Of a stretch of DNA of 64,000 bases, positions 8,866 through 54,542 are shown piece after piece; positions within the stretch are counted from its first letter, which is position 1; every line of letters begins with the position of its first letter. The position numbers were made by a program, and so were the translations under genes. The DNA is from Candidatus Kaiserbacteria bacterium CG10_big_fil_rev_8_21_14_0_10_47_16. GTDB lineage: Bacteria > Patescibacteriota > Minisyncoccia > Phycocordibacterales > UBA918. Under the pieces are notes generated by a model. It was not told the origin of the DNA, ran no database searches, and worked only from the letters and a program-made list of their open reading frames with translations. Where the stretch lies: positions 335,860-399,859 of the forward strand of contig PFBI01000006.1 in the NCBI GenBank assembly GCA_002773395.1. Reading direction: 5' to 3'.

Positions 8866-10158
8866 TTGGCCACTAACCCTAAAACGATGGACACATTTAT
8901 TCAGAAGATGAAAATCATATTCACCGATTCTGCGATTCGTAATCGTATCTTGTTTGTACTTGGAGCACTCATCGTGTTCCGTGCACTTGCAACCATCCCG
9001 ATTCCAGGCGTTGATGTTGTCGTTCTTGAGCAATTCTTTTCAAACAACGAATTCCTCGGGCTTCTCAACATCTTCTCTGGAGGTGGTCTCTCAAACCTCT
9101 CAATCGTACTCCTCGGTGTAGGACCATTCATTACTGCATCAATCATCATGCAGCTTCTTACGGTGATGTCACCGAAGTTGAAGACGCTCTACACAGAAGA
9201 AGGGGAGAGCGGGCGACAGAAGTTTACACAGATCACACGCACACTCACACTTCCACTTGCGATTCTTCAGGCGTTCGGCTTCCTCTCACTTCTTAAGAGT
9301 CAGGGAGTCCTCCTTGATATTGGAACATTCGGTTTCTTCGCAAACATCGTTGTGGTCGTTGCCGGTTCAATGCTCTTACTCTGGCTCGGTGAACTCATTA
9401 CTGAGTACGGTATCGGAAACGGTGTCTCAATCATTATCTTCGCTGGTATTATTGGTGGTCTTCCTGCAACGTTTGGACAGCTGTTCTTTACCTTCAACGC
9501 GGCACAGATCCCACTCTACATTGGCTTTGGTGCGGCAGCGCTTCTGATCATCTACTTGGTAGTAGTTATGACACAAGCAGAACGACAAGTGCCGATCACG
9601 TACGCAAAGACCGTTCGTGGAGGGAGTGCATACGGAGGCACTACAACCTACCTTCCGCTCCGACTCAATCAAGCGGGAGTTATCCCAATCATCTTTGCGC
9701 TTTCTATCTTGCTGTTTCCGCAAATGATTCTCAACGTGCTCTCTGCGTTCGATATTCCCGGTGTCGGTGTCCTTCTCGCGAAGGTGAGTGCGTTCTACGC
9801 ACATCAGATTTGGTACGCAGTTGCATACTTTGCATTCGTATTCCTCTTCACATTCTTCTACACTGCGGTAACGTTCGACCCTGACGCGGTCTCTAAGAAC
9901 TTGCAGCGACAAGGATCGTTTATCCCCGGTATTCGTCCCGGAAGTCACACCTCTGCATACCTTGGAAGTGTCATCACACGCATCACGTTTGTCGGTGCGC
10001 TCTTCCTCGGAGTGGTTGCGATTCTTCCAGTCGGAATGCAGGCACTAACTGGTGTCACTGCACTCGCAATCGGTGGTACTGCACTCCTCATTGCGGTGTC
10101 GGTAGTCATCGACATCGTACGTCGCGTTGATTCACAAGTGTCCCTTCGCGAATACTAA
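8866..10158 (+). CDS. secY: Preprotein translocase subunit SecY
   Basis: 10-TM SecY with canonical N-terminal and plug regions. Operon position after rplO. Confidence 0.95.
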   Translation: MATNPKTMDTFIQKMKIIFTDSAIRNRILFVLGALIVFRALATIPIPGVDVVVLEQFFSNNEFLGLLNIFSGGGLSNLSIVLLGVGPFITASIIMQLLTVMSPKLKTLYTEEGESGRQKFTQITRTLTLPLAILQAFGFLSLLKSQGVLLDIGTFGFFANIVVVVAGSMLLLWLGELITEYGIGNGVSIIIFAGIIGGLPATFGQLFFTFNAAQIPLYIGFGAAALLIIYLVVVMTQAERQVPITYAKTVRGGSAYGGTTTYLPLRLNQAGVIPIIFALSILLFPQMILNVLSAFDIPGVGVLLAKVSAFYAHQIWYAVAYFAFVFLFTFFYTAVTFDPDAVSKNLQRQGSFIPGIRPGSHTSAYLGSVITRITFVGALFLGVVAILPVGMQALTGVTALAIGGTALLIAVSVVIDIVRRVDSQVSLREY

Positions 10159-35012: not shown

Positions 35013-36395
35013 ATGGATTCACTTACACAATCATCTCGCAGTATCGTTCAGACACAGCAAATTGATGTTAAGCAGCTCTGGGACGACACTCTCGTCCAGA
35101 TTGAGCTTTCCATTACCGCTGCCAACTTCAAAACATGGTTTCGTGACACACATATTGTGTCTCTCGAGGACGGAACAGTGACCCTTGGCGTCCCCAGTGT
35201 CTTTGTGCGCGACTGGCTTGCTGATAAGTTCCAATCGCTCATCTTGAAAACCCTCCGTGACCTCACTCCACACGTTCGAAGTATCGAATACGCGGTGGTG
35301 CAACGCTCAAGTAAGAAGTTTGAGTCAAGTAAGAAGCAAACAGTAAACGCAACCCTGCCCCTTGAGGAGTACTACATCAACAAGAACGACAACCTCAACC
35401 CGAAGTATCTTTTCGAAACGTTTGTTGTCGGCCCATTCAACGAACTTGCGCATGCTGCTGCAAAAGCCGTGTGTGAAAAGCCGGGGATTGTGTACAACCC
35501 ACTCTTTATTTATGGAAAAACAGGCCACGGGAAGACACACCTTATCCAAGCGGTAGGGAACCAACTAAAACGAAATGGCCGAAGTGTGTTCTATGTCACC
35601 AGTGAGCGGTTTGCGGTGGATTATATGAACTCTCTCCAGAGTGGTACCGCAAATAACTTCAAAAATAAGTACCGCCAGTACGATGTGCTTATCATGGACG
35701 ACGTGCAGTTCCTCTCAAGTAAGGAAAAGACGCAGGAAGAACTCTTCCACCTCTTCAACGCAATGCACGACAACAACAAACAGATTGTGTTCTCAAGTGA
35801 TACGCACCCAGCACTACTCTCAGGGCTCCAGGAACGTCTCCAGTCACGTTTTGCACAAGGAATGATTGTAGACATCCCGCAGCCTGACAGTGAGTCTCGT
35901 GCGTCGATTATTCAATCAAAGACTGCACGCAGTAATATCACGCTTGAGAATGACGTTATCACCTTCCTTGCGACGACTATTGAGGGGAACATCCGGGAGC
36001 TTGAGGGTGCGCTCAACATTGTAATGTGCCAAACACAGGTGACTGGACGAACACTTTCACTCGATGAGGTTGTCGCGCTCATGAAAAACAGCGCGCGCCC
36101 ACGACGATCACTCGCGGTATCTGATGTTGTTGATAAAGTCGCACGATACTTTGATGTCGAACCATCTAGTATCTACGAAAAAACGCGGCGAAAGGAGATT
36201 GTGAAGCCTCGACAGCTCATTATGTACATTCTCCGAGAAGATTTTGCGGTCTCATACCCATCTATCGGCCAAAAGCTTGGTGGGCGTGACCACACAACCG
36301 TCATCCACTCATGTGAAAAGATTAAGCGTGAGGTGTTGGAAGGGAATGATGATTTGGTAGAAGAAATTGCTCAAATTCGAGCGCTTCTCCAATAA
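35013..36395 (+). CDS. dnaA: Chromosomal replication initiator protein DnaA
   Basis: AAA+ Walker A GKTGHGKTHL, sensor motifs and a C-terminal DnaA-box-binding HTH. Confidence 0.95.
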   Translation: MDSLTQSSRSIVQTQQIDVKQLWDDTLVQIELSITAANFKTWFRDTHIVSLEDGTVTLGVPSVFVRDWLADKFQSLILKTLRDLTPHVRSIEYAVVQRSSKKFESSKKQTVNATLPLEEYYINKNDNLNPKYLFETFVVGPFNELAHAAAKAVCEKPGIVYNPLFIYGKTGHGKTHLIQAVGNQLKRNGRSVFYVTSERFAVDYMNSLQSGTANNFKNKYRQYDVLIMDDVQFLSSKEKTQEELFHLFNAMHDNNKQIVFSSDTHPALLSGLQERLQSRFAQGMIVDIPQPDSESRASIIQSKTARSNITLENDVITFLATTIEGNIRELEGALNIVMCQTQVTGRTLSLDEVVALMKNSARPRRSLAVSDVVDKVARYFDVEPSSIYEKTRRKEIVKPRQLIMYILREDFAVSYPSIGQKLGGRDHTTVIHSCEKIKREVLEGNDDLVEEIAQIRALLQ

Positions 36396-36422
36396 AAACA
36401 GCGTGTCTACGCTGTTTTTATA

Positions 36423-36714
36423 AGCCCTCGAAACCCCTGTGTACTACCTGTGAATATCGATGGTAAAATCACTGTGGAAGACTCGGTATGAATGTGTGTA
36501 TAAACGACAAATAATTTACACTTATGCACACATATACACCGACAGCCCAAATAGGTAGAGTATATGCACACCAATGTGAGGGTGAGTACACAGTTTTTCT
36601 TTCAGAGTGTTGATGAGATAAAGGTGAAGGTATACGGTAAAATTGGTTTATACACCTATCCACACTCCTAATAGGGAATAGTGGTTTTAGAAAAAATAAA
36701 TAATAAGAACAGTT
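36423..36714. other. Putative oriC segment with DnaA-box-like 9-mers and an AT-rich unwinding element between dnaA and dnaN
   Basis: TTATNCACA-like sites are visible (TGTGTATAA, TTATGCACA, TTATACACC, TATCCACAC, TTATGCACA at the dnaN start), along with an AT-rich run TTTTAGAAAAAATAAATAATAAGAA. More boxes (TATCCCCACA, TTTTCCACAAA) lie between rpmH and dnaA. Confidence 0.5.
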
Positions 36715-37803
36715 ATGCACATCACGGTCGACCATATAAAACTCCAAAATCTTCTCGAAAGAGTTGCACGAGTGAGTACAAAACACCTCACACTCCCTGC
36801 GCTCCAATGTGTACTTCTTGATGTAAAAGAAAACACCCTCACTATTCGCGCAACAAATCTAGAGATAGGTATTGAAGGCACTATTGCAGTTGATGTAAAA
36901 GAAGAGGGAACAGTGAGTGTTATTGCGCAAACGTTTTTACAAATTGTTTCACTTATTTCACAAAAAGACGTAACACTTCACACAGAAGGTGATGTGCTTA
37001 TTGTGGAGACAAAAACATCACGCACAACAATCCATACAATTACTGCACAAGATTTCCCTCATATCCCAAAAGTGGAAGGGAAAGGACAGGTTATTAAAGG
37101 AACTATTTTTGCAAATGCAGTAAAGACGGCAGCGTTTGCTGCGTCACAGTCGTCTATTAAGCCAGAACTCGGCTCAGTGTATGTATTTCAAAAGAAGGAA
37201 CACACACTTACCTGTGTTGCGACAGACTCCTTCCGATTGGTAGAAAAAACAGTTTCCCAACAAAATGTTGTTCTTGAAGAGGGAATACTTATTCCCGCGA
37301 AGAATGCACTTGAACTCGCGCGACTCTGTGATTCCCAAGATGACGACCCAATGTTGTACATAACAGAGAATCAATGTGCGTTGCAGTTTGAGAACATCTA
37401 TATCACATCACGGCTTACGTCAGGAACCTTCCCTGACTACGCTCAGATCATTCCTAAGGAGTTTGTGAGCCATAGTACACTCCTTACCCAAGACCTGCAG
37501 AATGCGCTCAAGAAGACGAGTATATTCCTTAATAAGTTCATGCAGCTTACGATCGCGGCGTCAGCGCAAAATCTCACCCTTACCTCAAAAGGTGATGTAG
37601 GGACAACAACTGAGAAAACACCCGCAAGTCTTGAGGGGGATGAAATCTCCTTAAACTTCAACCAACGATATATCGCAGATATTTTAGGGTACATCACCGA
37701 CGAAAGTATAACGATTCACTTTGCAGGGACGGGGCGACCGATCATTATTGAAAGTGTGCACGATAAGTCACTCCGGTATTTGGTAATGCCAATGAATAAG
37801 TAG
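36715..37803 (+). CDS. dnaN: DNA polymerase III beta sliding clamp
   Basis: Three-domain beta-clamp length and sequence. Position after dnaA. Confidence 0.9.
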   Translation: MHITVDHIKLQNLLERVARVSTKHLTLPALQCVLLDVKENTLTIRATNLEIGIEGTIAVDVKEEGTVSVIAQTFLQIVSLISQKDVTLHTEGDVLIVETKTSRTTIHTITAQDFPHIPKVEGKGQVIKGTIFANAVKTAAFAASQSSIKPELGSVYVFQKKEHTLTCVATDSFRLVEKTVSQQNVVLEEGILIPAKNALELARLCDSQDDDPMLYITENQCALQFENIYITSRLTSGTFPDYAQIIPKEFVSHSTLLTQDLQNALKKTSIFLNKFMQLTIAASAQNLTLTSKGDVGTTTEKTPASLEGDEISLNFNQRYIADILGYITDESITIHFAGTGRPIIIESVHDKSLRYLVMPMNK

Positions 37804-37817
37804 TAGCTTCAGGTTAT

Positions 37818-38102
37818 ATGCGAGGAGGTGGAATCAAAAAAGTAGCCGATCTCTTTGAGACGTATCGGACACGGCTTAAAGCGCCGCAGAAAACTGTCAT
37901 AAACACCTTTACAGAGGTTGTGAGTGACGTGTGCGGCTTTTCTCTGCGTACGAGTGACGTTTCCTACACACCGTCCTCAAAAACACTCTCGCTTAAAGCA
38001 GCGGGGCCTCTCAAAACAGAGATTCTACTGCGCAAACAAGAACTCCTTATTCATATGAAGGGACGCCTTGGTGCATCGAGTGCACCAAATGAGATTATTT
38101 AG
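37818..38102 (+). CDS. Small DUF721/DciA-like protein (tentative)
   Basis: A 94 aa ORF immediately downstream of dnaN. Its C-terminal LSLKAAGPLKTEILLRKQELL pattern resembles DUF721. Context and weak similarity only. Confidence 0.35.
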   Translation: MRGGGIKKVADLFETYRTRLKAPQKTVINTFTEVVSDVCGFSLRTSDVSYTPSSKTLSLKAAGPLKTEILLRKQELLIHMKGRLGASSAPNEII

Positions 38103-43314: not shown

Positions 43315-44301
43315 TTAAAGATTCTGGATGTGACTGTATGCGATCGGAGTTGCAACACGACCGCGAGGCGTACGCTCGAGGAGTCCTTGGCGAATGAGGT
43401 ATGGTTCGAGAACGTCCTCGATTGTCGCCTGCTCCTCGCCGGTTGCGGCAGCGATGGTGTTGAGTCCGACAGGACCACCGTTGAACTTGGTGATAATTGC
43501 GTCGAGTACTGCACGGTCGGGACCAGAGAGACCGAGTGTGTCTATCTCGAGAAGACCAAACGTTCGGCTGACGGTGTCGGCAGTAATAGCCCCACCTTCA
43601 AGCTGTGCTAAGTCGCGGCATCGCTTGAGGAGATAGTTTGCAGTACGTGGTGTTGCGCGACAACGTGCAGCGATGCCACTAAATATTTGATCAGGGGTAT
43701 CGACACCAAGGAGTGCCGCTGAGCGCCTTAGGATTGTTGCGATTTCATCTTCAGAATAAAACTCCAATCGGAATGTACCGCCAGAAAAGCGTGATCGAAG
43801 CGGTGAGGAGAGGAGCGAAATGCGCGTTGTTGCGGCAACGAGTGTAAAGGGAGGAAGTTCAAGTTGTACCGTGCGTGCAGACGGACCTTTTCCAATAATG
43901 ATATCGAGAACTCCCGATTCCATAGCAGGGTAGAGAACTTCTTCAATGCTTTTACTGAGTCGGTGGATCTCATCAATAAAGAGGACGTCACCGGGAGAGA
44001 GGTTGGTGAGGATTGCCGCAAGATCGCCAACACGTTCAATGGCGGGCCCTGATGTTGAGCGCATGTTGGTCCCTAAGGTTTTTGAAATCAGGTGTGCGAG
44101 AGTCGTCTTCCCGAGTCCGGGCGGTCCATAGAGAAGAATATGTTCTGCAGCGTGTCCACGTTCGCGTGCGGCCGTGAGTAAAATACGCAGGTTTTCCTTT
44201 ATTTTTTCTTGACCCACATACTCGTCCCAACTTTGTGGGCGAAGGGTCTGGTCAAGGTTGCTCGCAAAATCACGAGAAATTTCTTTGGAGTCAGTATCCA
44301 T
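43315..44301 (-). CDS. ruvB: Holliday junction branch-migration helicase RuvB
   Basis: AAA+ Walker [12 protein letters not shown], Walker B and the RuvB winged-helix C-terminus. Confidence 0.9.
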
Positions 44302-44359
44302 TGGGACATTTTACCAAAGAAGCACCCAAAAGGGCAGGAGTAACAAAAAGGGGTAAGGG

Positions 44360-44387
44360 TTGACAAAAATAATCAGTATGCTAGAAT
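44360..44387 (+). promoter_or_regulatory. Near-consensus sigma-70 promoter TTGACA-16-TAGAAT facing a roughly 290-nt ORF-less region
   Basis: Perfect -35 hexamer, 16-nt spacer and a 5/6 -10 hexamer, read directly. Confidence 0.5.
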
Positions 44388-44393
44388 ACTGGT

Positions 44394-44690
44394 GTTCGTT
44401 CTTCATCTGCCGCTTTTGCGACAGGTGTTTTCTTTTTAATTTTAGAGTGGAGAAAGAAGGGTTATCCAGCCGATAACCCTCTAAACAACAAAAGGTTGCT
44501 TTACGAGGACACTGTGGTGCTCACCTTCGAGTGAGATCTCTGTGGTGTTCCTTAGTTCTGTAACCACTTCTTCCGGGAAGTTTTGCTTAGAGGGTTATAT
44601 TCTGGATTCTCAGTGAACACCACCGATGTAACTAGGGAATACTCTAGCACATGAAAAAGCATCTGCGTATTGACCAGATGCTTTTTGTAT
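44394..44690 (+). ncRNA. Candidate structured non-coding RNA of unknown family, from promoter to terminator with no ORF
   Basis: Bounded by the consensus promoter and the hairpin AAAAAGCATCTG-CGTATTGAC-CAGATGCTTTTT. Several internal stems are visible, such as GGGTTATC-CAGCCG-GATAACCC nested in TTTAGAG/CTCTAAA, CTCAC-CTTCGA-GTGAG, ACTTC-TTCCGGG-GAAGT, and a long-range TGGTGTTC / GAACACCA pairing. Confidence 0.35.
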
Positions 44691-44704: not shown

Positions 44705-46411
44705 TCAGACTGTGTCCTCAGAATCTTGGTCTGTATCAAGATCAGGCGCCTCTTCAGTGGTGCGAGTGTTGTGAAGATCGATCACACGTTCGAGCTCATC
44801 GAGGGAGGTGATGCCGGCGAGAACTTTTTCAATACCGTCTTGCGCCATACTCGGAATATCTTGTTTCTTCGCTGCGGCAAGAATGTGTATTTCACGAGGA
44901 TCACGAATGACCGCTTCCTCGACGGCGGTGTCAACGCGAATTGCTTCAAAGACACCTTTGCGTCCCTTGTATCCACTTCCACCACATGCGGGGCAACCCT
45001 TTGGTTCGTAGATGGTGTGCTGCGCAACTGGTTCGTCCATGATTTGTGCAATGAGTGTTTGTTCTTGTGTAGTTGCGTCACGCTGTACTTTGCATTCATT
45101 ACAGAGAAGACGAACCAAGCGTTGTCCGAGGATGAGATTGACGGAACTGCCGATTGTACGGGCATCAACACCGAGGTCGAGTAGACGAGGGAAGGCAGCT
45201 GCTGCGCTGTTTGTGTGGAGTGTGGAGAAGACGAGGTGACCGGTGAGCGCCGCGTTCATGGCGGTTTCCGCTACCTCGCGGTCACGGATCTCACCGACCA
45301 TAATAATGTCGGGGTCTTGCCGGAGAATTGCACGAAGACCTTGCGCGAAGGTGTAATCTTCTTCAATTTGGGTCTGTACGATTCCAGGGAGCTTATATTC
45401 AACAGGATCTTCAATGGTCACAATCTTTGTTTCGGGCGTATGGACTTTTTGCATGAATGCGTAGAGTGCGGTTGTTTTTCCTGAACCGGTTGGACCGGTA
45501 GTAATGATGGCGCCATTTGGTCGTACGAGCTCTTCAAGAACGACGGCTTTGAGTTTGTCATTGAGACCTAGACCTTCAAGGGTAAACCCAGATGCGTCAG
45601 GGTCGAGGAGACGCATTACGACAGACTCACCGTATGCACCAGGAATGACTGATGTACGCACTTCGATCTTGCGTGTACCCACGTCGAAGGTGAAGCGCCC
45701 GTCTTGTGCTTCGTTGTGAATATTGAGGATAAGGCCAGAGAGAAGTTTTATACGAGACGTAATGAGTGTGTAGATTGTTTTGTCGGCATTGGTAATATCC
45801 CACAACACACCATCGAGACGGTATCGAAAACGCACGGTGTTTTGTTCTGGTTCAATGTGGATGTCAGATGCACCGAGCGCGAGTGCGCCCGCGAACAGTA
45901 CCTCGATAGTACTTGTTGCACGCTCTGTTTTATTTGTTTGCTGTACTTCAAGGATTTTGGTTGCAACGTCGAGGTGCGTTTTAATTTCTGCAGCGAATGC
46001 GGTAATGGCGGCAGGACTGATGTCGAGGACACCCTGCTTCTCAGCTGTTGCAGAGAGAACGTCTTTGTAGCGAAGCCACGCATGGTCGAGACTTGCGAGC
46101 GTAACGAGGTATCCGGTAATGGTGTAGCCGCGTGACTCAAGAGATTGGAGCACCTCTTCGGTCTTCGGATTTTCAGGATTTTGAATAGCGACAGAAAGCT
46201 GTTTGTTTTGTTCGAGGAATGCAGCAACCTGAGCTTCGCGAGCAACCTTTTCAGGAATGAGCGCAAGCGCATCGGTATCGATGGTAATACCGTGGAGATT
46301 GGTATATCCGAGGTTGTAGTTTGGGGCCAGCATGCGGGCAGCGTTCTCCTCCGCGCTGTGTCCAAGCGATTCGAGCTTTTGATTGATACGCGTGTCATCA
46401 AACTGTGGCAT
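44705..46411 (-). CDS. pilB: Type IV pilus / type II secretion family assembly ATPase (PilB/GspE)
   Basis: Walker A GPTGSGKTT, Asp and His boxes and a tetracysteine Zn motif (CNEC...CPACGGSG). Confidence 0.85.
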   Translation of the reverse strand: MPQFDDTRINQKLESLGHSAEENAARMLAPNYNLGYTNLHGITIDTDALALIPEKVAREAQVAAFLEQNKQLSVAIQNPENPKTEEVLQSLESRGYTITGYLVTLASLDHAWLRYKDVLSATAEKQGVLDISPAAITAFAAEIKTHLDVATKILEVQQTNKTERATSTIEVLFAGALALGASDIHIEPEQNTVRFRYRLDGVLWDITNADKTIYTLITSRIKLLSGLILNIHNEAQDGRFTFDVGTRKIEVRTSVIPGAYGESVVMRLLDPDASGFTLEGLGLNDKLKAVVLEELVRPNGAIITTGPTGSGKTTALYAFMQKVHTPETKIVTIEDPVEYKLPGIVQTQIEEDYTFAQGLRAILRQDPDIIMVGEIRDREVAETAMNAALTGHLVFSTLHTNSAAAAFPRLLDLGVDARTIGSSVNLILGQRLVRLLCNECKVQRDATTQEQTLIAQIMDEPVAQHTIYEPKGCPACGGSGYKGRKGVFEAIRVDTAVEEAVIRDPREIHILAAAKKQDIPSMAQDGIEKVLAGITSLDELERVIDLHNTRTTEEAPDLDTDQDSEDTV

Positions 46412-51263: not shown

Positions 51264-51336
51264 CCGCCCATAGCTCAGTTGGTAGAGCAGCTCCCTTTTA
51301 AGGAGAAGGTCCTAGGTTCGAGCCCTAGTGGGCGGA
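51264..51336 (+). tRNA. tRNA-Lys (anticodon UUU)
   Basis: Acceptor CCGCCCA/TGGGCGG, D-arm GCTC-AGTTGGTA-GAGC, anticodon loop CTTTTAA giving TTT, T-arm CTAGG-TTCGAGC-CCTAG, discriminator A. Confidence 0.8.
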
Positions 51337-51342
51337 CTCGAG

Positions 51343-53969: not shown

Positions 53970-54542
53970 TTATTTCCCAAGAATCTGAAGCGCAGCTTTA
54001 ATGCGGGCATTCGTTTCCGTGATGTCCTCAGCAATGACGGCGAGGACGTCTCGCGCATCGCGCTGAGTATACCCAAGCGCAATGAGCGCATCAAGAACAT
54101 CGCTGTCACCGCTGTGTATATGTGGTGCAGGAGAATCGTCCCGTGTGAAGGCGTGCATTTTATCTTTGAGCTCAAGGATTATTTTTTCGGCAGTCTTTTT
54201 CCCGATGCCGGACATCTTTGCGAGATACGAGGCGTCTTGTTTTGCGATTGCAGTATGGAGCAGTTTTATATCGGCCTGCGAAAGAATTTGGAGTGCTGAT
54301 TTCGGACCAATCTTAGGCAAGGTAAGAAGGAGCTCAAACATCGCGAGTTCATCGTCGGTAATAAACCCATAGAGGTCGAGCGCGTTCTCGCGCACCGCAA
54401 GGTGTGTGTAGAGGCGAACAGATTCACCGAGTGCAGGGTGCGTGTGCGCAGGCATTGCCACCTTGTAGCCGATACCGCCTATCTCAATAACGACAAATTC
54501 AGCGCAACTTTCAATAATAGTGCCAGAAAGACTTCGAATCAT
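53970..54542 (-). CDS. ruvA: Holliday junction DNA helicase RuvA
   Basis: OB-fold N-terminus, two HhH motifs (LLTLPKIGPKSA..., MSGIGKKTAEKI) and a C-terminal domain III. Confidence 0.85.
   Translation of the reverse strand: MIRSLSGTIIESCAEFVVIEIGGIGYKVAMPAHTHPALGESVRLYTHLAVRENALDLYGFITDDELAMFELLLTLPKIGPKSALQILSQADIKLLHTAIAKQDASYLAKMSGIGKKTAEKIILELKDKMHAFTRDDSPAPHIHSGDSDVLDALIALGYTQRDARDVLAVIAEDITETNARIKAALQILGK

Follow-up and report, generated by a model that had tools for sequence, protein, structure and literature searches.

What does a bacterial genome encode in a spacer that carries a near-consensus promoter followed by no plausible open reading frame (ORF)? The question is raised by a 64,000-nucleotide (nt) stretch of DNA from Candidatus Kaiserbacteria bacterium CG10_big_fil_rev_8_21_14_0_10_47_16 (contig PFBI01000006.1; the whole stretch analysed is called the window hereafter), in which, by the ORF list and Pfam matches, a 403-nt spacer separates ruvB from the gene for a pilB-type ATPase, both on the minus strand. 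A preliminary description had proposed that this spacer encodes, on the plus strand, a stand-alone non-coding RNA (ncRNA) of an unclassified family. Our results bear this out. The window's plus strand is the structured RNA strand, and we hold with high confidence that the spacer contains a genuine stand-alone gene for a structured ncRNA whose family is absent from Rfam 15. The locus has the general features of such genes, namely a promoter and a terminator of its own, no ORF, and a covarying structure on one strand.

Conservation of the segment carries much of this conclusion. In nhmmer comparisons, window positions 44465-44606 were conserved upstream of ruvB in two related loci, L005 and L006. 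We fetched 80 loci through RuvB similarity and built a covariance model, R1, from four sequences. With default filters the model detected the conserved core in 17 of 19 Patescibacteria genome loci (L005-L023), and with filters off it also matched in L012 and L074, which brings the genome loci to 19 in all; none of the fetched Firmicutes, Chloroflexi or other loci gave a match. Metagenome contigs scanned with an RNA-only pattern yielded at least 120 stretches and 80 loci (all metagenome counts in this text are among the matches listed). R1 matched 77 of the 80, giving at least 77 metagenome homologues; three pattern-found loci had no model match and were set aside, and L086, the one of these that was read, shows no recognisable RNA. 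The preliminary description had named homologous spacers between ruvB and pilB as the place to look; in all, the segment is conserved, with covariation, at about 96 loci. The RNA is single copy, with one in the window and one per locus. Its structure has been kept between lineages that share only ~56-85% identity in RuvB, the nearest RuvB relatives belonging to metagenome-assembled Patescibacteria labelled Kaiserbacteria, Nomurabacteria, Ryanbacteria, Zambryskibacteria and Sungiibacteriota.

Base-pair covariation is extensive. Compensatory changes were found in 10 of 42 pairs among four sequences, in 30 of 41 among 18, and in 32 of 38 among 95. In the 95-sequence alignment 93.2% of cells were paired, against 78.9% in column shuffles, a level reached by none of 500 shuffles; the covariation score was 0.445, against 0.184 when shuffled and at most 0.145 when pairing partners were slid by one to three columns. 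The closing helix P1 shows changes on both sides in 21 of its 25 pairs across 94 distinct sequences, and its near-invariant inner part is replaced by other complementary sequences in L012 and L074 (AUCCGAGCGAU/AUCGCUCGGAU and AUCUGUGGGC/GCCCACAGAU). P2a, the junction-proximal helix of the P2 arm (GGUUGC/GUAACC in the window), also covaries, and reads GAGCAC/GUGUUC, UCAUCA/UGAUGA or GAAUAC/GUAUUC among relatives (read by eye from the alignments).

Several measures identify the structured strand. Consensus folding gave -40.2 kcal/mol on the plus strand versus -9.7 on the minus strand for 18 sequences and -38.0 versus -10.7 for 95, the latter minus-strand fold retaining only part of P1. G-U and U-G pairs outnumbered A-C and C-A combinations by 81 to 23 (18 sequences) and 400 to 69 (95 sequences), and single-sequence folds were more stable on the plus strand in 18 of 18 cases. 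Additionally, one highly conserved P2 pair is U.G in 73 of 94 sequences, which on the opposite strand becomes a C-A mismatch. The remark that no plausible ORF follows the promoter was likewise correct: ORFs in the spacer and in its 95 homologues are short and unconserved, with a median longest ORF in the homologues of 21 codons on the RNA strand versus 13 on the opposite one. A small protein gene was rejected for want of any conserved ORF in the spacer or its homologues.

The fold itself is elaborate. Positions 44394-44692 fold to -101.9 kcal/mol (z = -5.3), with none of 200 shuffles as stable, which bears out the hairpin-rich segment noted earlier. The proposed RNA unit of about 290 nt stands as a span from promoter to terminator, but only the 146-nt core within it is conserved; leader and trailer vary. 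The window belongs to type I, in which a core of about 145 nt joins three helices at one junction, while most relatives belong to type II, in which a core of 155-175 nt carries an extra small hairpin, P1.1, that makes the junction four-way. At the place of P3, the 17 type I sequences that folded into two branches have one of 12-18 nt. Across relatives P1 spans 25-30 base pairs (bp), the P2 arm 64-78 nt and the whole core 131-185 nt, and the junction is tight, its strands totalling mostly 8 nt or fewer in 94 folded members. Within P2, a conserved AGGAC/AUCCU helix is broken by a C / UA internal loop and topped by a variable apical hairpin. The UGG/CUG site of the same arm, in which a U.G and a G-C pair surround an unscored G/U position, is conserved. 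Coordinates of all features are collected in Table 1.

Table 1. Features of the RNA gene, its neighbours and two divergent homologues (window positions unless a locus is named; promoters, leader elements and terminator are predictions).
Feature	Position	Strand	Basis and remarks
RNA gene promoter	44360-44387	+	-35 TTGACA 44360-44365, 16-nt spacer, extended -10 TGcTAGAAT 44379-44387
Variable 5' leader	44394-44462	+	69 nt in the window
Leader hairpin and U-run	44404-44443	+	CAUCUGCCGC-UUUU-GCGACAGGUG, then UUUUCUUUUUAAUUUU; from sequence and fold
Conserved structured core, type I, three-way junction	44463-44608	+	146 nt; covariance model 141.6 bits
P1 5' strand, closing helix	44464-44488	+	25-nt arms, 84% complementary (inverted-repeat search), and fold
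P1 3' strand, closing helix	44583-44607	+	Inverted repeat and covariation
P2 arm	44494-44565	+	P2a, GAGGAC...GUUCCUUAG helix with internal loop, UGG/CUG site, apical hairpin
P3 hairpin	44566-44581	+	CACUUC-UUCC-GGGAAG region; directly abuts the P1 3' strand
3' trailer	44609-44653	+	Between core and terminator; in type I relatives, absent in type II
Bidirectional intrinsic terminator	44654-44690	both	AAAAAGCAUCUG, 9-nt loop, CAGAUGCUUUUU, then GUAUUU
Candidate distal ruvB promoter (extended -10 box)	44641-44649	-	TGCTAGAGT; just past the pilB terminator, toward ruvB
Proximal ruvB extended -10 box	44308-44316	-	TGGTAAAAT; 6 nt before the ruvB ATG (44301-44299)
ruvB	43315-44301	-	Pfam RuvB_N, AAA_lid_4, RuvB_C; divergent neighbour of the RNA gene
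pilB-type (T2SSE) ATPase gene	44705-46411	-	Pfam T2SSE, MshEN; convergent with the RNA gene
Divergent homologue in L074	1968-2138	-	Missed by default filters
Divergent homologue in L012	3702-3832	-	Missed by default filters

The gene's predicted promoter matches 11 of 12 consensus positions (-10 hexamer TAGAAT at 44382-44387, TG extension at 44379-44380), and would start transcription at about 44392-44394. It had been called the best match in the window, and indeed the pattern TTGACA-N13-15-TGnTAnnnT occurs there just once, against 0.06 occurrences expected. Its strict form, TTGACA-N16/17-TGnTAnnnT, lies upstream of the core in the orientation of the RNA in 18 of 18 genome loci scanned and 67 of 77 metagenome loci; at least three of the ten metagenome loci lacking it end too near the core. 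The alternative raised earlier, that this sequence belongs to the upstream region of minus-strand ruvB, fails because the promoter points away from ruvB at every locus and ruvB has extended -10 boxes of its own. Promoters of transfer RNA (tRNA) genes in the window and related loci match the consensus less well, at 7-10 of 12 positions. TG-extended -10 boxes are common before the tRNA genes of this lineage, one example being TCGACA-16-TGnTATAGT, 13 nt before tRNA-Lys (tRNA at 51264-51337), and these sequences suggest a TG-extended promoter consensus in these organisms.

The leader varies between relatives. Outside the core, nhmmer found no alignment of the leader with L005 or L006, and because the distance from the end of the -10 box to the core ranges from 7 to 184 nt in relatives, the leader is probably dispensable and the RNA probably starts at P1 in some lineages. 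In the window a terminator-like hairpin lies about 10 nt past the predicted start and could act as an attenuator gating the core RNA, or as a 5' stabiliser. Elements of this kind, a hairpin followed by a U-run, occur in 19 of 52 long leaders of relatives, versus 4.0 expected from shuffles. A separate 9-bp hairpin at 44458-44480 (AGGGUUAUC / GAUAACCCU) spans the leader end and the P1 5' strand, and would compete with P1. It was rejected as a conserved feature, since by eye L005 has a weaker 5-bp counterpart and L006 none.

A variable leader and trailer could hold seed sequences, and an RNA with its own promoter and terminator could be a base-pairing small RNA (sRNA) that acts in trans on distant mRNAs through an exposed loop or the leader. 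We think this improbable. The conserved parts are mostly helical, with few nucleotides both conserved and unpaired, no excess complementarity to the ruvB 5' region was detected, and base-pairing sRNAs seldom keep a structure over such evolutionary distances.

At the other end of the gene, the terminator stem is a 12-bp perfect inverted repeat (44654-44665 / 44675-44686) flanked by A- and U-runs, with TTTTTGTATTT after it on the plus strand. It sits 18 nt beyond the pilB stop codon and, as the preliminary description had it, would be shared, ending both the RNA on the plus strand and pilB on the minus strand. It was missing from the terminator scan because its 9-nt loop exceeds the 8-nt limit of the tool. 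Type I relatives have an equivalent hairpin, whose stem covaries and whose loop is conserved. This type I loop (44666-44674 in the window, with TTGACC at 44670-44675) reads CTTGACC on the RNA strand, or GGTCAAG on the ruvB strand, with variants TACAAG and CACAAG; the feature is also present in L005, L146, L162, L144, L115, L088, L156 and L110. The reverse complement of the 7-mer recurs in ruvB at about codons 12-14 (window 44249-44256). Type I members, the window included, have a trailer and this separate terminator. In many type II members the P1 3' strand ends in GCUUUUUU opposite a 5' AAGAAGGC, so that P1 itself would be the intrinsic terminator.

Searches against known families support the view that this RNA is unclassified. 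At the gathering threshold Rfam 15 found only five tRNAs in the window, as did ARAGORN, which found no transfer-messenger RNA (tmRNA), and across 146 kb of related loci Rfam gave no 6S, signal recognition particle (SRP), ribonuclease P (RNase P), tmRNA or 5S ribosomal RNA (rRNA). Permissive Rfam searches of the spacer, nine homologous loci and two type II members returned only noise, such as snoR16, PyrR and RydC at E > 0.4. Components of the Patescibacteria housekeeping machinery are divergent, and none of these universal RNAs was found in the sequence searched, so a highly divergent SRP RNA, RNase P RNA, tmRNA or 5S rRNA might have been missed by the models. We regard this as extremely unlikely, given that none of their models matched at E up to 10. 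Other features also speak against these candidates. The apical loops of P2 and P3 are variable, leaving no conserved GNRA tetraloop or symmetric and asymmetric domain IV loops to mark an SRP RNA; the tRNA-like end of tmRNA is absent; and the core, at 131-185 nt, is far shorter than RNase P RNA, which has ~330-400 nt and a conserved P4 core. A riboswitch or mRNA leader was rejected on orientation, the structured strand lying opposite both neighbours and the RNA running into a terminator and a convergent gene. For a retron ncRNA an end-pairing helix is present, but where a retron has a reverse-transcriptase gene, immediately downstream on the same strand, this locus has the convergent pilB-type ATPase gene, and the upstream gene is ruvB. 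A mobile repeat, such as a miniature inverted-repeat transposable element (MITE) or a repetitive extragenic palindrome (REP), was rejected on the single copy per 64-kb window or locus at the same syntenic place, as judged within the loci.

In shape the RNA partly resembles 6S RNA, and a functional analogue or very divergent form of 6S would be an abundant, rod-shaped molecule that mimics an open promoter, sequesters the housekeeping RNA polymerase holoenzyme and is freed when a short product RNA is made. To our knowledge, no 6S RNA has been described in the phylum Patescibacteria, and no canonical 6S was found in the sequences searched, which cover only a little of each genome; the 6S role could therefore be unfilled. 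Known 6S RNAs combine a closing stem and an apical arm with a large central bulge of single strands, which imitates an open promoter and contains the start of the product RNA, and their genes show strong synteny, lying next to rarA in lactic acid bacteria (PMC8414754). Like them, our RNA pairs its ends in a long closing stem, has a long apical arm whose small internal loops are regularly spaced, carries a hairpin 3' of the centre, falls within the 6S size range, and comes from a stand-alone, syntenic gene with what appears to be a very strong housekeeping-type promoter. However, the defining open bulge is absent. Where it should be, there is the tight three- or four-way junction described above, closed by P2a, which varies in sequence yet stays complementary, and in most members an additional hairpin occupies the position expected for the bubble's template strand. 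The Rfam 6S models gave no match even at E = 10, whether to the window spacer, nine homologous loci or two type II members searched singly. On these grounds we judge that the RNA is unlikely to be a 6S counterpart.

We found that the gene order around the RNA is conserved as a whole, and that its link to ruvB is tighter than that to pilB. ruvB is divergent from and adjoins the RNA in 65 of 66 testable metagenome loci (those with enough sequence), and it adjoins the RNA on the opposite strand in every RNA-bearing genome locus, including the distant lineage L074. Downstream, 70 of 82 loci have a pilB-type gene convergent with the RNA. Of the 12 loci with no pilB-like gene downstream, nine still have ruvB beside the RNA, and in the other three the upstream sequence is too short. 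In the one exception, L162 (133-1371), a split methyltransferase ORF and a small toxin-antitoxin-like gene pair lie upstream of the RNA and look like an insertion.

A gene so locked to ruvB invites the idea of a trans-acting partner of the Holliday-junction machinery, in which the RNA junction would bind or titrate RuvA, RuvB or their regulator. Adjacency at nearly all testable loci and in L074, its persistence in the nine loci that lack a pilB-like neighbour, and a three- or four-way junction in which two long arms stand opposite each other beside one or two short ones are all in keeping with such a role. So is the placement of ruvA, which directly precedes ruvB in the fetched Firmicutes and Chloroflexi loci, unlike in the RNA-bearing Patescibacteria loci, where none was detected upstream of ruvB. 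Yet the basis of the idea is genomic context, in a region whose gene order is conserved in any case; RuvA and RuvB work on junctions of DNA, from which RNA helices differ in geometry; and type I members, including that in the window, have three arms only. We therefore find it distinctly improbable. A broader proposal, that of a Patescibacteria-specific housekeeping ribonucleoprotein RNA with a novel role, either a junction RNA that binds or titrates RuvAB(C) or a structurally reinvented 6S analogue, we likewise consider doubtful, if a little less so.

Three further observations concern the wider surroundings. In the window ruvA lies at 53985-54542 on the minus strand, 10 kb from ruvB. Cumulative GC skew has its minimum at ~36000-38000 of the window and rises steadily afterwards, which may mark a replication origin; an origin at the spacer was accordingly rejected. 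On the plus strand of L116, a Patescibacteria metagenome contig, positions 9172-9226 match the type III hammerhead ribozyme at 49.4 bits (gathering score 48.5), 1.7 kb from the RNA.

The promoters of ruvB appear to be entangled with those of the RNA. Beside the core, the ruvB strand carries conserved extended -10 boxes close to consensus (TGCTATAAT, TGCTATAGT; TGCTAGAGT in the window), of which 57 were observed versus 15.2 expected. In type I loci the box closely follows the pilB terminator and precedes the core's antisense on that strand, and TGCTATAGT-like boxes take this place in 15 of 17 such loci; in many type II loci they lie in the leader. A transcript from this candidate distal ruvB promoter would, in the window, be antisense to the whole RNA gene. 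A second, proximal box directly before ruvB recurs at the same place in L005 (TGGTAGAAT-N6-ATG), the two loci sharing TGGTA[A/G]AAT 6 nt before the ruvB ATG, and would give a leaderless or near-leaderless ruvB mRNA. In the compact loci L107 and L074 the RNA -35 box is only 8-11 nt from the ruvB start codon; in L074, where ruvB starts with GTG, the RNA promoter is perfect, TTGACA-17-TGCTATAAT, and 11 nt separate its -35 box from that codon. Therefore, in such loci the promoters of both genes must overlap. Together the arrangement suggests that the RNA promoter sits inside the ruvB control region and fires against the candidate distal ruvB promoter, leading to convergent transcription.

These boxes also bear on whether the spacer needs an RNA product at all. 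A cis element, either a bidirectional terminator or insulator or the 5' leader or riboswitch of minus-strand ruvB, would suit a position between two same-strand genes. The type II P1, with its U-run and A-rich 5' side, would terminate both ways, and in type I the minus-strand extended -10 box would put the antisense of the core in the ruvB 5' untranslated region. In type II the core would not be part of the ruvB leader, because there the ruvB-strand box lies downstream of the core. Against the cis element, a perfect -35 with an extended -10 is conserved on the plus strand at nearly every locus, the structure is selected on that strand, as the excess of G-U over A-C combinations indicates, and P2, P3 and the internal loop covary, none of which a terminator needs. 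We consider such an element very unlikely.

We instead tentatively propose that the locus produces a stable RNA that binds a partner, and that convergent or overlapping promoters couple its transcription in cis to ruvB expression. To this mechanism we would give somewhat less than an even chance. Transcription of the plus strand would begin at the sigma-70-type promoter and proceed through leader, core and trailer to the terminator. The folded core would be long-lived and bind some partner, such as a protein, probably at the most conserved, partly non-canonical part of P2, GGAC-G / C-UA-UCC together with the UGG/CUG site. The gene would at the same time be wired into the ruvB control region, its strong promoter placed between ruvB and the opposite-strand extended -10 box, so that RNA transcription would run head-on across, or overlap, the ruvB promoter or promoters. 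Expression of ruvB could then be lowered by promoter occlusion, polymerase collision or antisense pairing. Pairing with the ruvB translation start was rejected as a separate candidate, since duplex energies were no better than those with shuffled targets (mean z = -0.2, by a crude method that allows long loops). Taken as a whole, the explanation built on this RNA gene is the best we can offer, and we hold it with moderate confidence.

Several points weigh against this explanation. The pilB-RNA-ruvB order is itself conserved, so the adjacency of ruvB may partly reflect general synteny, and at one locus, L162, the RNA has no ruvB beside it. An elaborate conserved core is not needed for transcriptional interference, and the two halves of the mechanism may thus be unrelated. 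In type II the predicted antisense overlap with the ruvB transcript comprises the leader only, and the RNA has no excess complementarity to the ruvB 5' region through which pairing might act. The leader hairpin with its U-run could halt most transcripts before the core. Both the 5' and the 3' end of the transcript are predictions, as is the abundance of the RNA. As for the covariation, the metagenome search pattern fixes part of P1, which makes that stretch uninformative; many of the sequences are close relatives, so that cell counts overstate independent events; and the alignment used (A5) was made with MAFFT and is not structure-based.

Much of bacterial diversity falls in the Patescibacteria, the candidate phyla radiation, whose genomes are tiny and whose members are nearly all uncultured. 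An RNA kept in such strongly reduced genomes likely does something important, and its promoter departs less from the consensus than tRNA promoters do. Its fixed place by ruvB offers a concrete link to the control of recombination and repair. A full-text literature search turned up neither an account of an RNA beside ruvB in Patescibacteria nor a paper on lineage-specific ncRNAs of the Paceibacteria group. With the covariance model, thousands of metagenome-assembled genomes can be annotated for the RNA. Should it do no more than regulate ruvB locally, it would still be a clean new RNA family, though of more modest interest.

Known systems offer partial parallels to each side of the proposal. 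In convergent-promoter cis-antisense modules, such as prgQ/prgX with Anti-Q RNA on plasmid pCF10 and pR/pL of phage 186, the stronger promoter drives a structured small RNA that is antisense to the opposing transcript in its 5' part. As in these modules, facing promoters at our locus would lie tens to hundreds of bp apart, and collision, occlusion or pairing would be expected. Here, however, the opposite promoter is a sequence-based prediction, the type II core lies outside the overlap, and the conservation and elaboration of the RNA core go far beyond what such systems require. RNA genes can also be linked to the gene of a partner protein, as for tmRNA and smpB, bacterial Y RNA and rsr, or OLE and oapA. 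The near-invariant adjacency of our RNA to one protein gene over a wide lineage is similar, whereas its divergent orientation, its apparently overlapping promoters and the largely conserved second neighbour, pilB, are not.

A further likeness is to the orphan, lineage-specific structured RNAs reportedly brought to light by the Weinberg and Breaker surveys, for example raiA motif RNA, OLE RNA and the Bacteroidales-1 and Chloroflexi-1 motifs. Like these, the RNA is stand-alone, has multiple helices with strong covariation, is confined to one lineage and is presumed to bind protein. Unlike them, it belongs to Patescibacteria, is fixed by ruvB and apparently entangled with the ruvB promoters; with no Rfam match, it is related to none of them in sequence or structure. 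It is a new family within a known kind, that of lineage-specific stand-alone structured bacterial RNAs.

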